A stretch of DNA of 64,000 bases. It comes from Candidatus Saccharimonadota bacterium. Lineage in GTDB: Bacteria > Patescibacteriota > Saccharimonadia > Saccharimonadales > Saccharimonadaceae. Of the stretch, positions 9,549 through 18,860 are shown piece by piece. The stretch covers positions 15,335 to 79,334 of the forward strand of contig JAUMXO010000001.1 of the NCBI GenBank assembly GCA_030529135.1. Reading direction: 5' to 3'. Made by a program: the position numbers and the translations under genes. Position 1 is the stretch's first letter. Every line of letters starts with the position of its first letter. The notes below the pieces were generated by a model, which ran no database searches, had not been told where the DNA came from, and saw nothing but the letters and a program-made list of their open reading frames with translations.

Positions 9549-10508
9549 ATGTCTCGCCTTATCTTAGTTTATAACCCCAACTCTTCTAATTATTGTCGTG
9601 TCAAAAAAAATATTTTAGATCAAAAAACCAAATTGTTTGCTGAAAAAAATCTTACCGATTATACCATCAAAAAAATTGGTTTTGAAAATAACGTTAAAAA
9701 CCTTCAAAAAGAACTCAAAAACGGCGACATTTGTCTTTCTCTCGGTGGCGATGCCACCGCTGCTATTACTGCCAATGCCATCATGAGTTCCCAAAAAGAC
9801 GTCACTCTTGCTGTTCTCCCATATGGCAACTTCAATGACCTCGCTAGAACTTTGGGAACGATGAAGCTGGAGGATTTAAACGTTCACAAGCGGACCTCCG
9901 CGACCAACAGGGAGGGTACCGCGAGTAAACCGTTTAAGTCCGCTAGCCGTTTGTACCCTCTCGAGATTTATGTAGACGGCAAATTTTGGCGTTATGCTAC
10001 TTGTTACGTAACCATTGGTATGACCGCCGAAGCAGTTGAACTTTTTGATGAACCAAAATTTAGAAAATATATGCAAAAGGGCCACAAAAGTTCCTGGCGC
10101 TCTTATCTAGAGTTGGCCAAATGGTATTTCAAAAACCGTCGGAAGAAAGTGTTTCTTCCTGAGTTCACTATCAACAAAAATTCCACAGTCAAGAAAGCCT
10201 CTGATTATGCTGCTCTTAGTGGCAAATCCATGTGCCGTGTCATGAAGGGTGGCGACGATTGGAAAAAGCCCTATATTTTTAGGAGTGCTGCCCTAAAAAC
10301 TATCAGCTTCCCAAGACTATTTATCTTGATGGCAAAATCAATCTTGCATCGTACTCCCGGCAGCGATACGAAAGGCGATCTTCTAGAATTCAAGGAACCA
10401 GCTACCGTCGAACTTCAAGCCGAAGGCGAATATCAAACTTTTAAAAATATCAAAAAGATCAAGGTTAAGAAAGGGAATCAATGTTTGAAAGTGATAACAA
10501 AAAACTAG
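9549..10508 (+). CDS. diacylglycerol kinase family protein
   Basis: YNPNSS, LSLGGDAT, LPYGNFNDLARTLG, QAEGE motifs; carries short palindromic insert. Confidence 0.8.
   Translation: MSRLILVYNPNSSNYCRVKKNILDQKTKLFAEKNLTDYTIKKIGFENNVKNLQKELKNGDICLSLGGDATAAITANAIMSSQKDVTLAVLPYGNFNDLARTLGTMKLEDLNVHKRTSATNREGTASKPFKSASRLYPLEIYVDGKFWRYATCYVTIGMTAEAVELFDEPKFRKYMQKGHKSSWRSYLELAKWYFKNRRKKVFLPEFTINKNSTVKKASDYAALSGKSMCRVMKGGDDWKKPYIFRSAALKTISFPRLFILMAKSILHRTPGSDTKGDLLEFKEPATVELQAEGEYQTFKNIKKIKVKKGNQCLKVITKN
9872..9941 (+). repeat. short palindromic element in-frame in DAGK gene
   Basis: Imperfect arms GGATTTAAACG / CGTTTAAGTCC; inner CCTCC/GGAGG hairpin with GCGACCAACAG loop resembling GCGACRACGGGAG of other copies. 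Confidence 0.55.
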
Positions 10509-11284
10509 AACAGGTCATAACATACATGAAAACTCACTGGCCAAGTCCAGTAAAAGACGAGTGGCAAGTCAGTTTAGAAGAATACCCCAAAATTCTAAAA
10601 CAAATTGTCGCGGATTTTACTAAAGATAAGACTAAGAATAAAAATCTTATTCGCATTGCTGGTCTTTCTGGTTCCGGTAAAACTTCCCAAATTCTCCCCG
10701 CTGTAGAAAAATATTGCGAGATGAAAAATTTAAATCCAGTTCTCATCGCTGCTCGTCGTTTCGTAGATTATCATCCGTTCAGAAATGAAATTGAAATAGA
10801 ATACGGTGAAGAAAATTTACGTAAAAACACCGATGAATTTAGTACTATCATGATGTTTTTGAGTTTAAATGCTCTTACTAAAGCTGGTTATGATATTATT
10901 TTAGACGTTACATTACTAGATCCAGAGGTAGAAAATATCTTACTTGGAATGTTAAGAGAGAATAATTATCAAACTATGCTTCTAATGATCGCTACCAGCC
11001 CTACTGTTACTGAACATTTTTTGGGCGGTCGTGGTTGGCGTCATTCTAAGGCGACTGAAGCGGAATTTATTCGTGCCACTAGGGCAGCAATGGAATTCTA
11101 TGCCCAAAACTATCCAGATCTTCACACGATTCTTTGGAGCGTGTATGATCTAGATCCGATTTATAACGGAAAAATCAAGAACGCATTAGATATTTTTCAA
11201 GAATATTCAGAGAAAACCGATCTTCCTAAGTCAAACGATGACGAAAGAAGGGAAGCTAAAATTCAATTTCTTTCAAAACTTTAG
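10481..11284 (+). CDS. zeta-toxin-like P-loop kinase
   Basis: Walker A GLSGSGKT, FVDYHP, YDIILDVTL. Confidence 0.65.
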   Translation: MFESDNKKLEQVITYMKTHWPSPVKDEWQVSLEEYPKILKQIVADFTKDKTKNKNLIRIAGLSGSGKTSQILPAVEKYCEMKNLNPVLIAARRFVDYHPFRNEIEIEYGEENLRKNTDEFSTIMMFLSLNALTKAGYDIILDVTLLDPEVENILLGMLRENNYQTMLLMIATSPTVTEHFLGGRGWRHSKATEAEFIRATRAAMEFYAQNYPDLHTILWSVYDLDPIYNGKIKNALDIFQEYSEKTDLPKSNDDERREAKIQFLSKL

Positions 11285-11822
11285 CAGTTGCCTCTTCCAA
11301 TTCTTCAATCGTACCATTATTTAATACGTAATAATCTGCCGCTGCGATTGGCCCACCTTTTTCTAGATTTTCGATTTCAGACCGATCGCGTTCTCGAATT
11401 GCTGCTGCATCAAAGGCCCTACCCGGTCTCACTGCCACCCTATCATAACGTAAATTTTTATCTACCACCACTGCTAGAAAAGTCAAAGCCTTTGGGAATT
11501 CGTGTTTTAAAGTGCAATATTCCGTCCAAGAATAGACCCCGTCAAGCACAATTCTCTTTTGTCCAGCAGCAATCAAATCTTTCGTCTCGGCAATCACTTG
11601 TCTTACTACCCAATCCTTGCCTTCCTTTTCACGGATTTCCTCACGGAATTTTTTCTCACTCTCGCCATCTTCGGTACGTTCAATCCCTCGTTTCTCCATC
11701 TCTTTATAAATCATCCCACCAAAATATACTTTCGGATAGCCTTTGGAAGTTAAATAATCCACGATTACCGATTTGCCACTCCCACTCATTCCCACAATTG
11801 CTAGTATTTTTACATTATCCAT
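11256..11822 (-). CDS. P-loop nucleotide kinase, dephospho-CoA kinase-like
   Basis: IVGMSGSGKS, IVLDGVYS, RDRSEIE, ADYYVLNNG; start ATG 11822 behind TGGTATACT. Confidence 0.75.
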   Translation of the reverse strand: MDNVKILAIVGMSGSGKSVIVDYLTSKGYPKVYFGGMIYKEMEKRGIERTEDGESEKKFREEIREKEGKDWVVRQVIAETKDLIAAGQKRIVLDGVYSWTEYCTLKHEFPKALTFLAVVVDKNLRYDRVAVRPGRAFDAAAIRERDRSEIENLEKGGPIAAADYYVLNNGTIEELEEATAKVLKEIEF

Positions 11823-11835
11823 AAGATAAGTATAC

Positions 11836-11958
11836 CACAAAAGCTAAATCTCGGGACATCAAGCAAAAAATCTTTGATTTTTTGCGCGCGGAGGTGTAGT
11901 GTCGTGATATAATCGAAGATTGATCACGACACGAAACTCCTGAGATTTAGCTTTTGTG
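11836..11958 (+). repeat. intergenic palindromic element (21-bp arms, two inner hairpins)
   Basis: Arms 11836-11856 / 11938-11958 (20/21); hairpins 11863-11885 and 11899-11932 with c-GAA-g loop. Confidence 0.8.
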
Positions 11959-11971
11959 ATATAATATACCT

Positions 11972-12784
11972 ATGCGTAATTTTTTTACGACCAAGGATCC
12001 GCTTGATCAAATTATCACGGACACTATGCCAGATAAGAAAATCGAAAAAACTGAGCATATCTTAACTGGCTGGACGAATATTGTTATAGAAGTGACTACT
12101 GATAAAGGTTCGTACTTTTTCCGTTTTCCGAGAAACCCATTTTGGTCGCGTATGATTGTCAAAGACGCCGCCGTTTGTAATTTTGTAGAAGGGAAGACCA
12201 GCTACTATACTCCACAAATGGAGCTGCATTACGACAAACACAAACGTCCGTTTTCTGTACACAAAAAAATCGAAGGCTATACTTTAGGCGATCGCATCTA
12301 TCATCTAAGTCATACTGCGCTTACTGGCGTAGCTTATGATACTGCCAAATTTATCAAAGAACTTTCCGGTATTGATCTTCGTGGCGCACCCAAAGAGGTT
12401 CAGATGCCTCTCTCCGAATTTCTGTATGAGCTAGATCACGAGCATTACAAAAAACATATCGACAAAGACCATGATTATATCAAAAAGACCGAAGAAAACA
12501 AATTGGTTCATGGCGACCTCAATCTCGGCAATATTTTATTAGATGAAAACGATAAAGTTATTGGCGTGATTGATTTTTGTTTTGCTGGTACTGGTAATCC
12601 CCAGATGGATACTGCCAGAATGTTGTCTCGCCCCGTCCCTGAAGGATTTGAAGAAATTTTCCTTTCTCAATTCGTTGATACTTCTGAGGTAGACAGAATG
12701 AAAACCGCCTGGAAACATATCGATGCCGGCTACGCCGAACACATCCGCAGCAATTTCCCCGAAATCAACCTCAATCAGCTCTAG
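11972..12784 (+). CDS. aminoglycoside phosphotransferase / choline kinase family protein
   Basis: FFRFP, HGDLNLGNILL, GVIDF motifs. Confidence 0.82.
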   Translation: MRNFFTTKDPLDQIITDTMPDKKIEKTEHILTGWTNIVIEVTTDKGSYFFRFPRNPFWSRMIVKDAAVCNFVEGKTSYYTPQMELHYDKHKRPFSVHKKIEGYTLGDRIYHLSHTALTGVAYDTAKFIKELSGIDLRGAPKEVQMPLSEFLYELDHEHYKKHIDKDHDYIKKTEENKLVHGDLNLGNILLDENDKVIGVIDFCFAGTGNPQMDTARMLSRPVPEGFEEIFLSQFVDTSEVDRMKTAWKHIDAGYAEHIRSNFPEINLNQL

Positions 12785-12866: not shown

Positions 12867-13859
12867 ATGCCAAAAAACATCACCGACAAAATTTACACCA
12901 TCCGTGGGCAGAAAGTGATACTGGACTACGATTTAGCGGAGCTCTATGGTTACGAGACAAAAGCATTCAATCGTCAAGTCCAAAGGAATATAGAAAAATT
13001 TAAAGGCGAAGAGTTTATGTTCCAGCTAACAAAACTGGAAGCGGAGCAATTTTCAAGGTCAAAAAATTTGACCTCAAATTCGGAAACCGGAATCTTGAGG
13101 TGCCAAAATGTCACCTCAAGTTGGGGCGGCGCTAGGTACCTCCCCCACGCCTTCACCGAACAGGGTATTTATATGCTCATGACCGTTTTAAAAGGTGAGC
13201 TCGCCACCAAACAAAGCCGCGCCCTTGTTATGACTTTCAAGGCCATGAAAGACTACATCATCAGCCACCAGTCTGTAGTTTCAAAAGTCATAGACAACTC
13301 CAAAGACATCGCCAAGATCAAAACCGAAATCAATCAAATCGCCAGCGAAATGACCGGCGTAGTTAAAAAATCTGAAATTTCTCCTATTCTTCTAGATTTT
13401 GCCAAAGTCGCCGAAACCAAAGAGTTTTTAATTTTAAATGGTGAACCAATGAGAGCCAAAGAAACCTACCAAGATATTCTTAGTAAGGCCGAAAAGCGAA
13501 TTTATATCATAGACAATTATATCAGCATCAAAACTCTCCGCCTTCTCCAGGCCGCTAGGCCAAACATAGAAGTGATATTTTTTAGCGACAATGTCGGGAG
13601 TTGTCTCTACGGCAGCGACGTCAAAGATTTTAAAAAAGATCGAAAAGATCTCAAGATCAAATTCATCCGAACTAACAATGCGGTTCACGACAGATTTATC
13701 ATCATCGATGGTGAAAAGTTCTACCATTGTGGCGCCTCGTCAAAAGACGCAGGGAAGAGAATCGCCATCCTCCACGAAATCACCGACAAACAAATTGTCA
13801 AAATCATCAAAGGTATTGTTATTAAAATGGCAAACAACAGAGAACTGATTTTAAAGTAG
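12867..13859 (+). CDS. ORF6N-domain DNA-binding protein with C-terminal PLD-like region
   Basis: IYTIRGQKVILDYDLAELYGYETKAFNRQVQRN, RYLPHAFTEQG; HDRFIIID. Confidence 0.85.
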   Translation: MPKNITDKIYTIRGQKVILDYDLAELYGYETKAFNRQVQRNIEKFKGEEFMFQLTKLEAEQFSRSKNLTSNSETGILRCQNVTSSWGGARYLPHAFTEQGIYMLMTVLKGELATKQSRALVMTFKAMKDYIISHQSVVSKVIDNSKDIAKIKTEINQIASEMTGVVKKSEISPILLDFAKVAETKEFLILNGEPMRAKETYQDILSKAEKRIYIIDNYISIKTLRLLQAARPNIEVIFFSDNVGSCLYGSDVKDFKKDRKDLKIKFIRTNNAVHDRFIIIDGEKFYHCGASSKDAGKRIAILHEITDKQIVKIIKGIVIKMANNRELILK

Positions 13860-13884
13860 CCCTATCTGTGGTATAATTATAGTT

Positions 13885-14077
13885 GTCCAAACTATAATTT
13901 AACGCAACAGAAAACAGCAGAATATATCTGTTGTCTATAGTGCTTAGAATCGGGCGCTGTAGGCAATAGGCACTATGTTCTGTTGTATAAGTAGTTTGGA
14001 CGCTATCTACAGCGTCCGATTTTGGTTTTGTAGTATGCGTCCATTTTGCACCTTTCTGTTGCGAGAAAGCAACAGAA
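13885..14077 (+). promoter_or_regulatory. highly structured leader upstream of methyltransferase (candidate cis-regulatory RNA)
   Basis: Nested and mutually exclusive helices; 9-bp hairpin ending 1 nt before ATG 14079. Confidence 0.55.
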
Positions 14078-14078
14078 C

Positions 14079-15182
14079 ATGGGAAGCAATGCGAATTTGC
14101 ATAAAGCCAACAAAGCCAAAAAAGATGAGTTCTATACTCAACTCCCCGATATAGAAAACGAACTCAAACATTATAAGGAACATTTTAAGGGTAAAACTGT
14201 ATTTTGTAATTGTGACGATCCATATGAAAGCAATTTCTTTAAATATTTTGCAATGAATTTTAACCATCTAGGTTTGAAAAAATTAATTTGCACAAGCTAT
14301 TCTGGCTCTCCAATTGTTGGCCAAGAATTTAGCGATTTGCCACTGTTTAAAAGTCTAAATTCCAAAAAAGCCTACAAAGTAGAAATCACAGAAGTTTATG
14401 ACGAGAATAAAGACGGTGCAGTGGATATGTATGATATCGAGCTTCTAATTAAAAACATGAAAAACAAAATGACACTCCTAAAAGGTGACGGTGATTTTAG
14501 AAGCAAAGAAGCTATAGAATGTCTAAGGGAGGCCGATATTGTAGTAACTAACCCACCATTTTCACTATTTCGTGAATATCTTGCTCAACTCATAGAGTAT
14601 AAAAAACTCTTTCTTATAATTGGAAATATGAATGCAATAACCTACAAAGAGGTTTTTCCACTTATAAAAGATAATAAAATTTGGCTTGGCTATGGGTTTA
14701 AGGGAGGGAACGCATTTTTTTCTATTCCAGTTTATAGCAACGAGTATGCTAAAGGTGTGTACAATGAAGAAACAGGGCTAGTCAAATTTAGAAATTGCAC
14801 TTGGTACACTAACATTGACCATAATAAAAGACACGAAGAACTTATTTTGTATAAAAAATATTCCCCAGAAGAATACCCAAAATATGATAATTATGACGCT
14901 ATCAACGTAGATAAGGTTAATGAGATACCGGATGATTACAATGGTGTTATGGGGGTGCCAATCACCTTTCTCGACAAATACAATCCGGATCAATTTGAAA
15001 TAGTTGCCTTTAGGAAGGGCGAAGATGGCCGAGACTTAGTATTTACGAGAGAGAGAGAGGATTCAACCATACTTTCGTATCCTTGTACGACGTCGATTCC
15101 AGGGATGATAAAAAATGCAGAAGGGAAAATCAATGGAAAAATTACATACGCCAGAATAACCATCATGAAAAAGAGCCGATAG
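14079..15182 (+). CDS. adenine-specific DNA methyltransferase, EcoRI family
   Basis: KKDEFYTQL, FCNCDDP, GDGDFRS, VVTNPPFSLFREY, GVPITFLDKYNPDQFEI. Confidence 0.9.
   Translation: MGSNANLHKANKAKKDEFYTQLPDIENELKHYKEHFKGKTVFCNCDDPYESNFFKYFAMNFNHLGLKKLICTSYSGSPIVGQEFSDLPLFKSLNSKKAYKVEITEVYDENKDGAVDMYDIELLIKNMKNKMTLLKGDGDFRSKEAIECLREADIVVTNPPFSLFREYLAQLIEYKKLFLIIGNMNAITYKEVFPLIKDNKIWLGYGFKGGNAFFSIPVYSNEYAKGVYNEETGLVKFRNCTWYTNIDHNKRHEELILYKKYSPEEYPKYDNYDAINVDKVNEIPDDYNGVMGVPITFLDKYNPDQFEIVAFRKGEDGRDLVFTREREDSTILSYPCTTSIPGMIKNAEGKINGKITYARITIMKKSR
15047..15059 (+). repeat. (GA)6G simple sequence repeat in methyltransferase 3' end
   Basis: ACGAGAGAGAGAGAGG at 15045-15060. Confidence 0.9.
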
Positions 15183-15290: not shown

Positions 15291-16382
15291 ATGAAAATTG
15301 AACTCAAAAACTTTAAAATTAAAGATATCTTCGAGGGCTATGAGGATAAAAACGAAGAAGGCATAACTGCATATAATGGCAAATTGGATATCCGCCCAAA
15401 ATATCAACGTGAGTTTGTCTATGATGACAAGAAGCGTAGCGCCGTTATTGATACTATCAAAAAAGACTTTCCACTCAATGTAATGTACTGGAATAAAAGA
15501 GATGACGGTGGCTACGAAATTCTAGATGGCCAGCAGCGCACTATCTCTTTCTGCCAATATCTAAATGGTGATTTTTCTTTTGAAGGCAAATATGCACATA
15601 ATCTCACGAAAGATGAATTAGAAAAAATCGAAAATTATGAATTGTTTATTTATATTTGCGAAGGCGAGGAAAGTGAACGTCTTGAGTGGTTTAGAACCAT
15701 TAATATTGCCGGCGAAAAGTTAACCGATCAAGAACTAAGAAATGCTACCTACACCAGCCCTTGGCTTACTGATGCTAAGAGATATTTTAGCAAATCTAAT
15801 TGTCCAGCTTACGGTCTTGCCGACAAATATATGAACGGTTCGCCAATCCGTCAAGACTATTTAGAAACCGTCCTAAGGTGGATTTCGGATGGCAAAATCG
15901 AAGAATACATGGCCGAGCATGCCAACGATAAAAAATACGACAATGCTTCCGAACTCTGGCAATATTTCCAAACCGCAATCGCTTGGGTGCAAACCATTTT
16001 CCCAGAGTATCGCAAAGAAATGAAAGGTTTAGAATGGGGCGAATTTTACAACAAATACCACAACAATTCCTACAACGCCACAGACCTAGAAAATAAAATC
16101 AAACAACTTATGCAAGATGAAGACGTCACTAGCAAAAAAGGAATTTACGAATACCTATTAAACGGCGACGAAAGAAATCTTAGCATCCGTGCCTTCACCG
16201 ACAACATGAAAAGAGAAGCATACGAGCGCCAAAACGGCATCTGTGCCAAGTGCGGCGAACGCTTTGAAATCACCGAAATGGAAGCCGATCATATCACTCC
16301 GTGGAGCCAAGGCGGAAAAACCATCACCGAAAACTGCCAGATGCTTTGCCGCGATTGCAATCGCAAGAAGTCCGACGTCTAA
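15291..16382 (+). CDS. DUF262 (GmrSD N-terminal-like) plus C-terminal HNH endonuclease
   Basis: RPKYQREFVY, LDGQQR, FRTIN; CAKC...EADHITPWSQGGKT...NCQMLCRDCN. Confidence 0.88.
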   Translation: MKIELKNFKIKDIFEGYEDKNEEGITAYNGKLDIRPKYQREFVYDDKKRSAVIDTIKKDFPLNVMYWNKRDDGGYEILDGQQRTISFCQYLNGDFSFEGKYAHNLTKDELEKIENYELFIYICEGEESERLEWFRTINIAGEKLTDQELRNATYTSPWLTDAKRYFSKSNCPAYGLADKYMNGSPIRQDYLETVLRWISDGKIEEYMAEHANDKKYDNASELWQYFQTAIAWVQTIFPEYRKEMKGLEWGEFYNKYHNNSYNATDLENKIKQLMQDEDVTSKKGIYEYLLNGDERNLSIRAFTDNMKREAYERQNGICAKCGERFEITEMEADHITPWSQGGKTITENCQMLCRDCNRKKSDV

Positions 16383-16424: not shown

Positions 16425-18860
16425 ATGAACCGGCTAGTTTTAATTGATGGAAAATCTGTCTTTTACCGTGGCTATTATGCCATGGGAGCCTTGAGCCTCC
16501 CAGATGGCACACCAACCGGTGGCATCTATGGCTTTGCCGCCATCGCTATGGAAATTGTTAAAAAGTTAAATCCTAGCAAAATTGTGGTGGCCTGGGATTC
16601 AAAAACTTCCACCGCTAAGAGAAAAGCCATCTACGAAGACTACAAAGCTGGCCGCGTCAAACCAGGCGAAGATTTTTACACTCAAATTCCTTTGCTAAAA
16701 AGACTAATCAACGATCTTGGCTGGTCCTTTATTGAACTAGACAATTACGAGGCCGACGACATTATAGGAACTCTCTCAAAGCAAGCCGACGAAGCGAAAA
16801 ATTACGAAACTTATATCATTTCTTCTGACCTCGATATGCTCCAAATTGTAGATGAAAATACTCATATGTGGCGCATTTTAAAAGGTTTTTCTAATATTGA
16901 AAAAATCGATGTCAAAGAAATTGAAGAGAAATATGGTATCAAAAAAAATCAATTCCTAGATTTAAAAGCCTTAAAGGGCGACTCTTCGGATAATATCCCT
17001 GGCGTCCCAGGCATTGGCGAAAAAACCGCAGCCAAGCTCCTAAACGATTATGGCACCCTAGAAAATATTTATCAGAATTTAGATAAAATCACCGGCTCGA
17101 CTAAAACCAAACTCGAAGCCGGCAAAGATTCTGCCATGATGTCCAAAAAGCTCGCCGAAATTATGTTCGACGCCCCAATCAACCTAACAACCATCCCAGA
17201 CTTCGAGTTCAACAAAGACAAGGTAATTAACGGCTTAAAGAAACTCCAATTCAACTCTCTCATCCGGAAAATTGGTGGGGGGCTTGGGAATAGTGTTTCC
17301 GAGACCGTCCGCGACAACGGGAGCGGAATGAGCGAGGAGCCCCGTGACGACGGGCGCGACGAAGCGCGTCGAGAAAACACTATCCCAAGCCCTGCGAGCG
17401 GCCCGTCCCGAGAGAGCGCCATTTCAAGCTCTAACGACACAATCTTGGATTGGGACATCAAGGGCTTAATGCACGAGAAAACAGAAATTGCCAAGAAAAT
17501 AGAATCCGGTGCAAAATACTGGGATCTTGGCCAAGCCGAATTTCTATTGAACCCTCTAGACCGCGGTCAATCGGACAAATATGACCCCATGGATTTCCGG
17601 ATGGCCTACCAAGTTCAGTACAGGGAACTAACCAAGATCCCTCGCCTATATAATATATATACCGAATTCGATCTTCCTCTCATACCAGTTCTCTACAAAA
17701 TGGAGATAAAGGGTATGCTGATAGATCGCGACTATTTTGCCAAACTTCGCACAGAATATGAAGAAGAGCTTCACACCCTTGAACAAAAAATTTACACTCT
17801 CTCGGGTATAACTTTTAATATCAACTCTCCAATCCAGTTGTCTGAAGTGTTGTTTATGCATCTAGGGCTCGCTACTAAGGGAATCAAAAAGACCACGCGC
17901 GGTTACTCAACCGGTGCAAAAGAATTAGACAAGCTAAAAAACGAGCATCCAATAATTAAAGAAATTATTAAATATCGCGAGACTAGCAAGCTTTTAAATA
18001 CTTATATTATTCCGATGCCAGACCTTGCAGATGACAATGACCGTATCCACACTACCTTTACGCAAAATGTGACTTCTACTGGTAGATTGAGTAGTAAAGA
18101 TCCTAATCTTCAAAATATCCCAGTTCGAACAGAAGAAGGAAAACGAATTCGTGCTGGTTTTGTTGCGCCAAAAGGCAAAAAACTAGTCTCTGCAGATTAT
18201 TCTCAGTTTGAGCTTCGTCTTGCCGCTATCATGTCGGGCGACCAGAGTCTCATCGATGATTTTAATAACAGTATTGATATTCACACTAAAACTGCTTCCG
18301 AAGCTTTCCACACCCCAATAAACCAGGTCACCAAGAATCAACGTCGCGCTGCTAAGGCTATCAATTTTGGCATTATTTATGGCATGAGCATTAATGGCCT
18401 AGCTGAAGCCACCAAAATGAATTTTTACGACGCCAAACGGTTCATGGATAACTACCAAAAACTTCGTGCGCCTATCATGGATTTTATGAAAAAAACTTTA
18501 GAAAAGGCTCGTACTGATGGCTACGTAGAAACTTATTTTGGGCGTCGTCGCCCTACTCCGGATGTCAAATCATCTAATTTTTTGATTAGAACCGCTGCTG
18601 AGCGCGCTGCGGGGAACATGCCAATTCAGGGAACAGAAGCCGATCTGATGAAACGTGCCATGATTAATATCGATAAAAAACTTCCAAAAAATGCCAACTT
18701 AATTATGCAGGTCCACGACTCTTTGATCGTGGAATGTGACGAAAAAGACACCGACGAAATTAGCCAAATTTTAAAACAAGAAATGGAGCAAGTAGCACCA
18801 GAGCTAAAAGTTAAATTGGCCGTAGATGTTACGATAGGCGACAATTGGGGTGAACTATAA
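16425..18860 (+). CDS. polA: DNA polymerase I (with in-frame palindromic insert in the linker)
   Basis: LIDGKS, YEADDIIG, GDSSDNIPGVPGIG, SADYSQFELR, AKAINFGIIYG, QVHDSL. Confidence 0.96.
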   Translation: MNRLVLIDGKSVFYRGYYAMGALSLPDGTPTGGIYGFAAIAMEIVKKLNPSKIVVAWDSKTSTAKRKAIYEDYKAGRVKPGEDFYTQIPLLKRLINDLGWSFIELDNYEADDIIGTLSKQADEAKNYETYIISSDLDMLQIVDENTHMWRILKGFSNIEKIDVKEIEEKYGIKKNQFLDLKALKGDSSDNIPGVPGIGEKTAAKLLNDYGTLENIYQNLDKITGSTKTKLEAGKDSAMMSKKLAEIMFDAPINLTTIPDFEFNKDKVINGLKKLQFNSLIRKIGGGLGNSVSETVRDNGSGMSEEPRDDGRDEARRENTIPSPASGPSRESAISSSNDTILDWDIKGLMHEKTEIAKKIESGAKYWDLGQAEFLLNPLDRGQSDKYDPMDFRMAYQVQYRELTKIPRLYNIYTEFDLPLIPVLYKMEIKGMLIDRDYFAKLRTEYEEELHTLEQKIYTLSGITFNINSPIQLSEVLFMHLGLATKGIKKTTRGYSTGAKELDKLKNEHPIIKEIIKYRETSKLLNTYIIPMPDLADDNDRIHTTFTQNVTSTGRLSSKDPNLQNIPVRTEEGKRIRAGFVAPKGKKLVSADYSQFELRLAAIMSGDQSLIDDFNNSIDIHTKTASEAFHTPINQVTKNQRRAAKAINFGIIYGMSINGLAEATKMNFYDAKRFMDNYQKLRAPIMDFMKKTLEKARTDGYVETYFGRRRPTPDVKSSNFLIRTAAERAAGNMPIQGTEADLMKRAMINIDKKLPKNANLIMQVHDSLIVECDEKDTDEISQILKQEMEQVAPELKVKLAVDVTIGDNWGEL
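17280..17392 (+). repeat. GC-rich palindromic element, in-frame in polA
   Basis: Arms 17280-17298 / 17375-17392 (18 bp plus bulged A); core motifs shared with ileS and 29376 copies. Confidence 0.85.

Follow-up and report, generated by a model that had tools for sequence, protein, structure and literature searches.

A structured leader with two alternative folds, predicted to act as an RNA switch, precedes a restriction-modification operon in Saccharibacteria

We examined a 64,000-nucleotide (nt) stretch of a Candidatus Saccharimonadota genome (assembly GCA_030529135.1, contig JAUMXO010000001.1, positions 15,335 to 79,334), hereafter the window, in which a 219-nt gap separates a gene with an ORF6N domain from the first gene of a two-gene restriction-modification (R-M) operon, a DNA methyltransferase (MTase) gene. 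From sequence comparison, this gap appears to be a genuine, new and cis-regulatory structured leader, most likely a switch acting on transcription termination and translation. We consider it probable that the gap holds a promoter and a ~195-nt 5' leader whose two mutually exclusive folds gate read-through into the operon. The folded leader RNA would most likely gate the R-M genes in place of the usual controller protein. An earlier note, made from the letters of the window, had suspected an attenuator, riboswitch-like or antisense-controlled leader RNA at this place, and that suspicion is supported by a shared architecture in nine further loci and by compensatory changes. The comparison of homologous leaders, set beforehand as the test that could refute the idea, found conservation and compensatory changes, the opposite of a refutation.

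Results

A structured element lies between a promoter and the methyltransferase start codon

All elements of the leader described here are on the forward (+) strand. Transcription is predicted to start at about 13885, the first base of helix P1, 7 nt after the TATAAT of a promoter at 13850-13877; a consensus scan scored this promoter 10/12 plus the TG motif, with a -35-like TTTAAA at 13850-13855 and the extended -10 element TGGTATAAT at 13869-13877. Helix P1 joins GTCCAAACTA (13885-13894) to TAGTTTGGAC (13992-14001) in 10 perfect base pairs (bp). Next comes AATTTAA (13896-13902), an unpaired or weakly paired segment at the P1-P2 junction that is found in all subtypes of the family described below. 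A box that we call X1 (GCAACAGAA, 13904-13912) is the 5' strand of helix P2a and pairs with 13978-13986 through eight Watson-Crick pairs and one G-U; X2, a second direct copy of the box (ACAGCAGAAT, 13914-13923), pairs either with 13977-13986, forming P2b, or locally with 13927-13934. The common 3' strand of P2a and P2b is X' (GTTCTGTTGT, 13977-13986). Between X2 and X' stands hairpin P3 (13937-13976), a 10-bp stem (13937-13946/13967-13976) with a 20-nt loop that contains the 5' strand of a pseudoknot, 13948-13962.

The 3' strand of the pseudoknot, 14007-14021, matches that loop over 15 nt (14 Watson-Crick pairs and one G-U) and consists of the 3' arm of an intrinsic terminator, T1, with its flanks. 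T1 (13996-14029) has the stem 13996-14004/14011-14019, the loop ATCTAC and a U-tract at 14020-14029; in the consensus scan its stem is followed by TTTTGGTTTT, and its 5' arm overlaps the P1 3' strand by 6 nt. A second copy of the T1 3' arm (14029-14048, with GCGTCCA at 14037-14043 and then TTTTG) can pair with 13997-14011, and the full-length minimum-free-energy fold pairs it there; at the corresponding place one relative, L082, has a separate second terminator. The last element is a perfect start-codon hairpin, TTCTGTTGC-GAGAAA-GCAACAGAA (14054-14077, arms 14054-14062/14069-14077), which has a purine-rich, Shine-Dalgarno-like loop and closes 1 nt before the ATG at 14079. All other members of the family have an equivalent start-codon hairpin, with AGGAGG in the loop or the 3' arm.

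These pairings bear out the earlier note, which had listed P1, P2a, the pseudoknot and the start-codon hairpin as given here, the outer part of the P3 stem (13937-13943/13970-13976), and a GGACGCT/AGCGTCC hairpin before a T-rich run, which is the terminator-like hairpin 13996-14019. The promoter with the predicted start site, and the second box copy X2, are additions to that list. The density of pairing is far beyond that of shuffled DNA: the 224-nt region contains five perfect inverted repeats of at least 9 nt, whereas 1000 dinucleotide shuffles gave 0.086 on average and never more than 2, and its RNA folding z-scores are -7.1 (13884-14030) and -6.9 (13884-14100). The box GCAACAGAA occurs four times in the window, where 0.61 occurrences are expected, and three of the four lie in the leader region.

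The leader belongs to a family with a common anatomy

The promoter-leader-hairpin cassette was found in nine further loci. In eight of these it stands in front of the genes for the closest MTase homologues; in the ninth, L129, it precedes a different open reading frame (ORF). The ten distinct leaders fall into four sequence subtypes: window/L084/L318; L082; L083/L320; and L003/L093/L129/L297. Within the window's subtype, L084 is 89.5% identical to the window leader by BLASTN (91.9% in a MAFFT comparison), and L318/L319 has the same gene order as the window. L082 is the closest MTase homologue, and L083 and L320 are close ones; each of the closest MTase homologues examined carries an equivalent element directly upstream. 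L003 (=L321/L322) lies in a Candidatus Saccharibacteria genome and L297 in Candidatus Saccharibacteria GCA_017418275.1, so that the labelled family members (L003, L297) are all Candidatus Saccharibacteria. L093 and L129 came from a scan of metagenomes with the DNA pattern TATAATTN{3,4}TTRTCYN{5,7}AATTTAA, which is too AT-rich: among the matches listed only these two were genuine and the rest were chance. Viral contigs scanned with this pattern and with two more specific ones gave chance matches only. Wherever the contig is long enough, the downstream genes are an MTase and a DUF262-HNH nuclease.

Conservation within the family starts precisely at the TG of the extended -10 element. TGnTATAAT is invariant in 10/10 members, the DNA 5' of its TG is unrelated between loci, and the spacing of TGnTATAAT, 6 nt and the first P1 base is constant in all 10. 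From there on the leaders share one anatomy. P1, of 10-12 bp, ties the 5' end to a strand just 5' of the terminator region, and AATTTAA follows its 5' strand. X1 and X2 are direct copies of a box of 8-13 nt, and because both are complementary to the single strand X', two exclusive pairings, P2a and P2b, are possible. P3 and an apical region follow, and this region includes a strand of 10-15 nt whose complement, the pseudoknot partner, lies downstream of P1. The leader goes on with one or two intrinsic terminators, in which the 5' arm shares bases with the 3' strand of P1 (window and L082) or duplicates the end of that strand (L003 and L083 types); a start-codon hairpin, whose loop or 3' arm contains the Shine-Dalgarno sequence, completes the cassette.

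Each helix has a different sequence in each subtype and is still paired. P1 is GTCCAAACTA/TAGTTTGGAC in the window, ATCTAAACCA/TGGTTTAGAT in L082, and GTCTTAAATCAA/TTGATTTAAGAC in both L083 and L003. P2a is GCAACAGAA/TTCTGTTGT in the window, TCGCACTTAGAA/TTCTAAGTGCGA in L082, CTACACTTAG/CTAAGTGTAG in L083 and TGCACTTAGGC/GTCTAAGTGCA in L003. The pseudoknot strands are AATCGGGCGCTGTAG/CTACAGCGTCCGATT in the window, GAGGCATCGCG/CGCGGTGTCTC in L082, AACCTGGGAA/TTCCCAGGTT in L083, AATCCGGGAA/TTCCCGGATT in L003, AATCTGGGAA/TTCCCAGATT in L320 and AATCCGGGAG/CTTCCGGATT in L129.

We counted covariation in a plain MAFFT alignment of seven long-type leaders. With P1, P2a, P3 and the pseudoknot taken together, 93.4% of positions are paired and 8 pairs are changed on both sides, which 0/500 shuffles reach; sliding the partners by 1-3 columns as a control lowers pairing to 22-46%. 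Substituting P2b for P2a gives 93.8% and 9 such pairs. Taken singly in the long subtype, P2a is 100% paired with 2 compensatory pairs, P2b 98.7% with 3, and the pseudoknot 93.8% with 3, so that the pseudoknot, which the earlier note had suspected, is among the better supported pairings and appears with new complementary sequences in each subtype. An independent RNAalifold run counted 10 compensatory pairs and recovered P1 and P2a together with the terminator and the start-codon hairpin. The P3 equivalent covaries in other subtypes, and all members have equivalent terminators with covarying arms. Within the window's own subtype, a metagenomic relative has 13956 G>A matched by 14013 C>T, a G-C to A-U exchange between the pseudoknot loop and the T1 3' arm. 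Across these sequences, compensatory changes preserve the pairing of P1 and P2, of the pseudoknot, and of the terminator and start-codon hairpin. Among the non-Watson-Crick positions G-U outnumbers A-C by 16 to 4, and therefore the helices would act as RNA of the + strand.

The leader is also more conserved than the flanking genes, which we read as selection. Between the window and L318 the leader (13860-14078 against L318:2282-2500) is identical at 217/219 positions (99.1%), whereas the flanking genes reach 80.6% (APH-type gene), 81.7% (ORF6N gene), 86.1% (nuclease gene) and 88% (MTase gene, first 300 nt). One contig differs from the window at 11 positions in 13790-13821 and at none over 13822-14052.

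Homology between the subtypes rests on architecture, on the promoter and its spacing, on AATTTAA and on gene context rather than on sequence score: a covariance model of the long type did not find the window subtype with default filters, and with filters off it aligned window 13885-14033, P1 and P2 in register, at 11.9 bits.

Two exclusive folds of similar energy suggest a termination switch

Between promoter and start codon the window has what a generic attenuator leader has, namely a GC-rich hairpin with a U-tract and an exclusive alternative helix of like stability (P1 or the pseudoknot against the terminator). The RNAfold minimum-free-energy structure is not the nested P1-P2-P3 form; it contains a 32-bp hairpin with 9 G-U pairs, 13914-13945 with 13952-13986, which is possible because X2 is a second direct copy of the P2 5' strand. 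Combined with P1, this P2b hairpin has a computed energy of -56.0 kcal/mol, and combined with the terminator, of -55.4 kcal/mol. The state with P1, P2a and P3 and with the pseudoknot strands left free is at -44.0 kcal/mol, on top of which the pseudoknot duplex could contribute up to -25.1 kcal/mol. In L003 the antiterminated fold (-80.0 kcal/mol) stands against the terminated one (-79.4 kcal/mol), and in L083 P2a (-66.9 kcal/mol) against P2b (-66.3 kcal/mol). The folds exclude one another and lie close in energy, and on these modelled values we read the element as a bistable leader with near-isoenergetic alternatives.

From these elements we infer the start site, termination itself, the direction of the switch and its trigger. 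Transcription would begin at the extended -10 promoter, at ~13885, and the nascent RNA would take one of two exclusive folds. Fold A would consist of P1, P2a (X1:X'), a small X2 hairpin and P3, displaying 13948-13962 in the P3 loop, from where it could pair with 14007-14021 as the pseudoknot. P1 would thereby take up 6 nt of the terminator 5' arm and the pseudoknot the whole 3' arm, permitting read-through to the MTase gene. In fold B, the long X2:X' hairpin would bury the pseudoknot strand, the terminator 13996-14019 with its U-tract would form, and the transcript would end at ~14025. The hairpin 14054-14077 on the start codon would be a second, translational gate. No promoter was found between the terminator and the ATG by consensus scan, and TAGTAT at 14031-14036 was rejected as a promoter element since it is not conserved in a metagenomic relative. 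In the relatives, only ~6-29 nt lie between the U-tract and the start-codon hairpin, which leaves no room for a promoter; because of this gap, the MTase gene would be transcribed only by read-through.

As the trigger we favour folding kinetics, which would make the leader a timer or dosage limiter for establishment, or feedback from a protein or RNA of the operon, rather than a metabolite. A non-metabolite trigger is favoured because the unpaired nucleotides are poorly conserved, the rod is mostly helical and no Rfam family matches, and kinetic or feedback control fits because helix-turn-helix (HTH) controllers hold the same regulatory position in homologous operons.

The two gates might be connected in the window's subtype, where the arms of the start-codon hairpin could swap partners with the P2 strands. 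The complementarity is perfect over 11 nt on both sides, 13903-13913 with 14053-14063 and 13975-13985 with 14070-14080, the last segment reaching two bases into the ATG. The earlier note's proposed pairing between 13904-13912 and the 5' arm of the hairpin is thus present, but in the window's subtype only; as a family-wide trait, pairing of the rod with the start-codon hairpin, by swapping or in trans, was rejected, being not above shuffled background in the other subtypes.

Several observations weigh against the proposed switch. One is that same lack, in the other subtypes, of P2-hairpin complementarity above shuffled background. The family comprises no more than 10 sequences in 4 subtypes, which limits statistical power, and the several close relatives among them inflate the shuffle statistics. 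A search for transcripts, in RNA-oriented runs, returned only DNA or low-depth contigs, and the sole metatranscriptome contig over a relative's leader also spans its promoter. Nor do all subtypes share one arrangement. In the window and L082 the terminator 3' arm doubles as the pseudoknot 3' strand, but in the L003 and L083 types the pseudoknot 3' strand lies ~40-50 nt 5' of a strong terminator, inside a hairpin of its own, and there the pseudoknot may favour termination rather than oppose it. The energies, finally, leave out pseudoknot topology and are approximate, and a 15-bp helix from a 20-nt loop needs P3 to be partly open.

A palindrome at the start site and an opposing promoter-like site

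The palindrome P0 (AATTATAGTT/AACTATAATT, 10 bp, 13875-13899) covers the last part of the -10 box, runs across the predicted start site and takes in half of the P1 5' strand, its 3' half, and an equivalent palindrome of different sequence is present in 9/10 members. Its RNA form is possible only in read-through transcripts, because the left arm precedes the predicted start. In RNA read through from the upstream gene it would block P1; P0 may instead be an operator. On the minus strand, inside the MTase gene, a promoter-like site at 14182-14210 (ATTACA-17-TAAAAT, 9/12) faces the leader, and an antisense RNA from it would span the start codon and the terminator; its occurrence is within chance, with 6 such sites found against 4.0 expected.

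Long-type methyltransferases appear to start at AUA

At long-type loci the MTase ORF has no ATG, GTG or TTG start, and an ATA aligns with the ATG of the window. This codon lies 4 nt after AGGAGG, and an in-frame stop is found five codons upstream in 6/7. The ATA codons are at L003:2993-2995, L082:1749-1751, L083:483-485, L093:7643-7645 (-) and L129:91-93 (-), and occur also in L320 and L297; the NCBI annotation of the L297 protein (P0007) starts at that codon too, as M. The long-type methylases thus appear, from the sequences, to start at a rare AUA codon, and those of the window's subtype at ATG. Most family members are accordingly predicted to couple the leader to an AUA codon, an unusual start.

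Operon, neighbouring genes and host

The MTase gene (14079-15182, +) encodes an N6-adenine DNA methyltransferase of the EcoRI family (Pfam PF13651, E = 1.8e-145), and its conserved partner (15291-16382, +) a nuclease with GmrSD_N (DUF262) and HNH domains by Pfam. This pair, adjacent and co-oriented and often with overlapping genes, recurs in many loci, and by its gene pair the operon is classed as a type II R-M operon. The ORF6N-domain gene (12867-13859, E = 2.5e-31) adjoins the leader upstream, and the C-terminal part of its product weakly matches models of nucleoside 2-deoxyribosyltransferase-like (YtoQ) and VPA1262 N-terminal proteins. Farther upstream (9549-12784) are kinase-like genes with a DAGK catalytic domain, a zeta-toxin/AAA_33 domain and an APH-type phosphotransferase domain; the APH and ORF6N genes are syntenic in L318/L319. 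Downstream of the nuclease gene lies polA (16425-18860); the named homologues of its product, at 71-77% identity, come without exception from Candidatus Saccharibacteria. DNA nearly identical to the window occurs in gut metagenomes (goat, sheep, bovine and others). Across the family the upstream neighbours are unrelated (ORF6N, KilA-N, CdiA_C, SpaA-like on the other strand, and hypothetical genes); the KilA-N gene lies upstream of the cassette in L320.

Although the MTase family spans many phyla, the leader does not follow it. BLASTN and nhmmer found no window-type leader in 80 loci with MTase homologues from other phyla (52-70% protein identity), and a covariance model run over the same 80 loci found L003 as the sole member. 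The leader is not general to this MTase family, because these 80 more distant loci lack similarity to it except in L003. A Pfam search of ten genes around the window operon found no HTH controller, and the MTase itself has no HTH domain by Pfam. In other lineages (L298-L302 and L303-L311, the P0081 and P0085 loci), homologous MTase and GmrSD_N-HNH pairs lack a structured leader; immediately in front of them stands a small, controller-like HTH gene, either co-oriented with them or divergent. The promoter region of L303 (TATAATTATA...GAGTTAAAATTTAACTC) resembles the 5' end of the cassette and has an operator-like palindrome. A lineage with a 467-residue MTase (P0050; L312:440-695, the same in L313-L317) carries an unrelated leader, a ~130-nt hairpin GTCCTCACA...TGTGAGGAC with a folding z-score of -6.0, followed by a U-run and then a hairpin GGTGTGA...TCACACC that closes on the ATG; its architecture is analogous and may have arisen independently.

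In L129 the cassette, with the same start-codon hairpin, stands before a different ORF with the N-terminus IKSRERVRDAGEVFT. This 31-residue fragment found nothing in Pfam, NCBIfam and PDB searches; in tblastn it weakly matches the first residues of an annotated N-6 DNA methylase (E = 5), in agreeing position, and the gene of that methylase adjoins an Eco57I-domain gene. At L321:2060-2100, ~100-140 nt 5' of the leader promoter, lies an isolated copy, GCGCTTAAGACATCTTGCGGTGTTTTTCC, that closely resembles the leader's P1 3' strand and first small hairpin (TTTAAGACATCATGCGGTGT...); it could be what is left of another cassette, or else a terminator motif that both places share.

Discussion

Alternative explanations

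The same elements could instead belong to a stand-alone, stable small RNA of ~140 nt (13885 to ~14025) with its own promoter and terminator, the MTase mRNA arising from leaky read-through. Such an RNA would work in trans, or as a partner or inhibitor of proteins of the operon; it might, for example, repress MTase translation by antisense pairing or restrain the nuclease like an RNA antitoxin. The consensus extended -10 promoter and good terminator would suit it, as would a 5' end paired to the 3' region, which many stable small RNAs have, and an RNA more conserved than the neighbouring genes; in addition, its segment 13975-13985 matches the start region of the MTase gene, 14070-14080, in 11 nt of perfect complementarity. 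That antisense match is missing in the other subtypes, however, the start-codon hairpin and start codon are part of the conserved cassette, and neither a variable guide-like segment nor a protein-binding hallmark was identified. A separate MTase promoter cannot fit 3' of the terminator, so the RNA would be at least also a leader; because the MTase needs read-through of the terminator, a purely independent small-RNA gene is unlikely. The small-RNA and leader roles are compatible with each other, and we regard the stand-alone reading as unlikely.

The layout is also that of a classical metabolite riboswitch, in that the 3' strand of P1 overlaps a terminator. P1 would close an aptamer made up of the rod and the pseudoknot, and a ligand such as S-adenosylmethionine (SAM) or S-adenosylhomocysteine (SAH) would choose between P1 with the pseudoknot and the terminator. 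Its long-range pseudoknot is backed by covariation, its alternative folds are near-isoenergetic, and the product of the controlled gene uses SAM. We searched Rfam 15 (4227 models, including riboswitch classes, T-box, 6S, signal recognition particle (SRP) RNA and known Saccharibacteria/TM7 motifs), as the earlier note had suggested, and the leader matched no family. At the gathering threshold the whole window gave two tRNAs only; window 13000-15000 at E up to 10 gave chance hits, the best at 24.2 bits against a threshold of 56 and on the opposite strand, and five relatives at E up to 1 gave no match in their leaders. Thus no riboswitch class, all SAM and SAH classes included, was matched even at E up to 10. 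A ligand pocket would be expected in the unpaired nucleotides, but these differ between subtypes save AATTTAA and a few short motifs: in this set of n=10, small enough for a pocket to be missed, only AATTTAA, AAUC/GAUU at the pseudoknot ends and GCGG recur, and the other loops vary. The rod, 117 to ~150 nt of mostly continuous helix with small loops, is unlike known ligand pockets, and the distribution is very narrow, one clade of Saccharibacteria R-M operons. Nothing points to SAM or SAH, with which the earlier note meant to probe the leader, or to another small ligand, and we hold a riboswitch to be quite improbable.

That note had also offered repeated DNA operator boxes as an alternative to RNA. 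On this account a repressor, for instance the neighbouring ORF6N protein or the MTase, would recognise P0 (13875-13899) and the repeated GCAACAGAA/TTCTGTTGC boxes, or else the promoter would be tuned through AATT-type methylation of TATAATT. In its favour, 9/10 members keep a palindrome across the -10 box and start, with its left arm outside the predicted transcript; TATAATT is invariant; and the window, L318 and L320 each have an upstream gene of the ORF6N or KilA-N kind. Yet the boxes change wholly between subtypes and stay complementary, with the 16:4 ratio of G-U to A-C that is a signature of RNA pairing on the + strand; no regulator gene is common to all loci, the upstream neighbours being unrelated, and the MTase lacks an HTH domain. 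Operator function may hold for the promoter palindrome alone, which would leave the rest unexplained; for the element as a whole it is very improbable.

Other candidates were rejected outright. Ribosome-mediated attenuation of the trp or erm type would need a leader peptide, but the sole ORF of the window leader (13975-14154) is cut to 21 codons in L084, and the short ATG ORF of the L003 type shifts frame in L083 and has no Shine-Dalgarno sequence. A retron msr-msd would account for the terminal 10-bp inverted repeat, but no reverse transcriptase gene is nearby in the window or its relatives. 6S, SRP, T-box and guide RNAs have no Rfam match, and no variable guide-like block is present. A controller-protein-regulated R-M system was discarded as no HTH controller gene was found around the operon, and MTase recognition sites in the boxes were discarded as GAATTC occurs in L082 only.

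A portable cassette and its significance

Beyond the gating of this operon, we tentatively raise a wider reading, on balance doubtful, that the leader represents a new class of RNA switch that replaces the R-M controller protein in ultrasmall, episymbiotic Saccharibacteria, in the form of a portable promoter-leader-start-codon cassette. Its bistable rod, through X1 or X2 pairing, would decide whether a loop able to capture the terminator region is exposed. The cassette, which could be placed before unrelated DNA methyltransferase genes, would govern when and in what amounts methylase and nuclease are made once the genes have entered a new cell, possibly by sensing a product of the operon.

R-M systems must make the methylase ahead of, and balanced with, the nuclease, and besides controller proteins their known modes of control include methylase autorepression and antisense RNAs. 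If the proposed switch is true, a structured cis-acting leader would be a fourth, RNA-only solution. Regulatory RNAs of Patescibacteria are almost unexplored, and the R-M barriers of these bacteria limit genetic work; knowing how such an operon is gated could aid transformation strategies. At ~200 nt, with two covariation-supported alternative pairings of near-equal energies, the cassette would also be a compact model switch.

Comparison with known systems

Antisense RNAs control the EcoRI and Eco29kI R-M systems, and countertranscript-driven attenuation controls replication of pT181 and pIP501. The window leader resembles these in that control would be at the RNA level, with kissing-loop or long-range pairing deciding whether a terminator forms; it differs in that the interacting strands lie within one transcript and no conserved reverse promoter was found, the minus-strand 9/12 site at 14210-14182 being the sole candidate. 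Among pseudoknotted riboswitches, ZTP, SAM-II/V and preQ1-II have a pseudoknot 3' strand that overlaps the expression platform. The window leader likewise has a covariation-backed long-range pseudoknot whose 3' strand is shared with the terminator, but it is a long rod with no Rfam hit and no apparent conserved pocket nucleotides.

Among proteins, controller (C) proteins and their C-boxes regulate the type II systems PvuII, AhdI and Esp1396I (PMC2175313, PMC2275141), and they are an established mode of R-M control (PMC2175313, PMC2275141, PMC4824078). The leader would do the same job from the same position, as a control module directly upstream of tightly dosed R-M genes, and homologous MTase and DUF262-HNH operons elsewhere do have an adjacent HTH gene. 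The window operon, by contrast, has none, and its proposed control is by RNA structure rather than by a DNA-binding activator or repressor.

Full-text literature searches on R-M leaders and attenuation and on Saccharibacteria riboswitches returned no description of such an element. The element also resembles attenuators of the Bacillus subtilis pyr, trp and T-box type and riboswitch platforms, which likewise place a leader between the promoter and the first gene. As in these, the terminator arms overlap alternative helices, which here are P1 and the pseudoknot, the competing folds lie close in energy, and the ribosome-binding site would offer a second gate. The element differs in having no leader peptide, no match to a curated family and no apparent conserved core for binding a ligand or tRNA. 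The antiterminator differs too: the usual one is a strand that captures the terminator 5' arm, whereas here it would be an apical loop 45 nt upstream that catches the 3' arm by forming a pseudoknot. The general kind, a terminator/antiterminator leader with a hairpin over the ribosome-binding site, is well known; the family is new.

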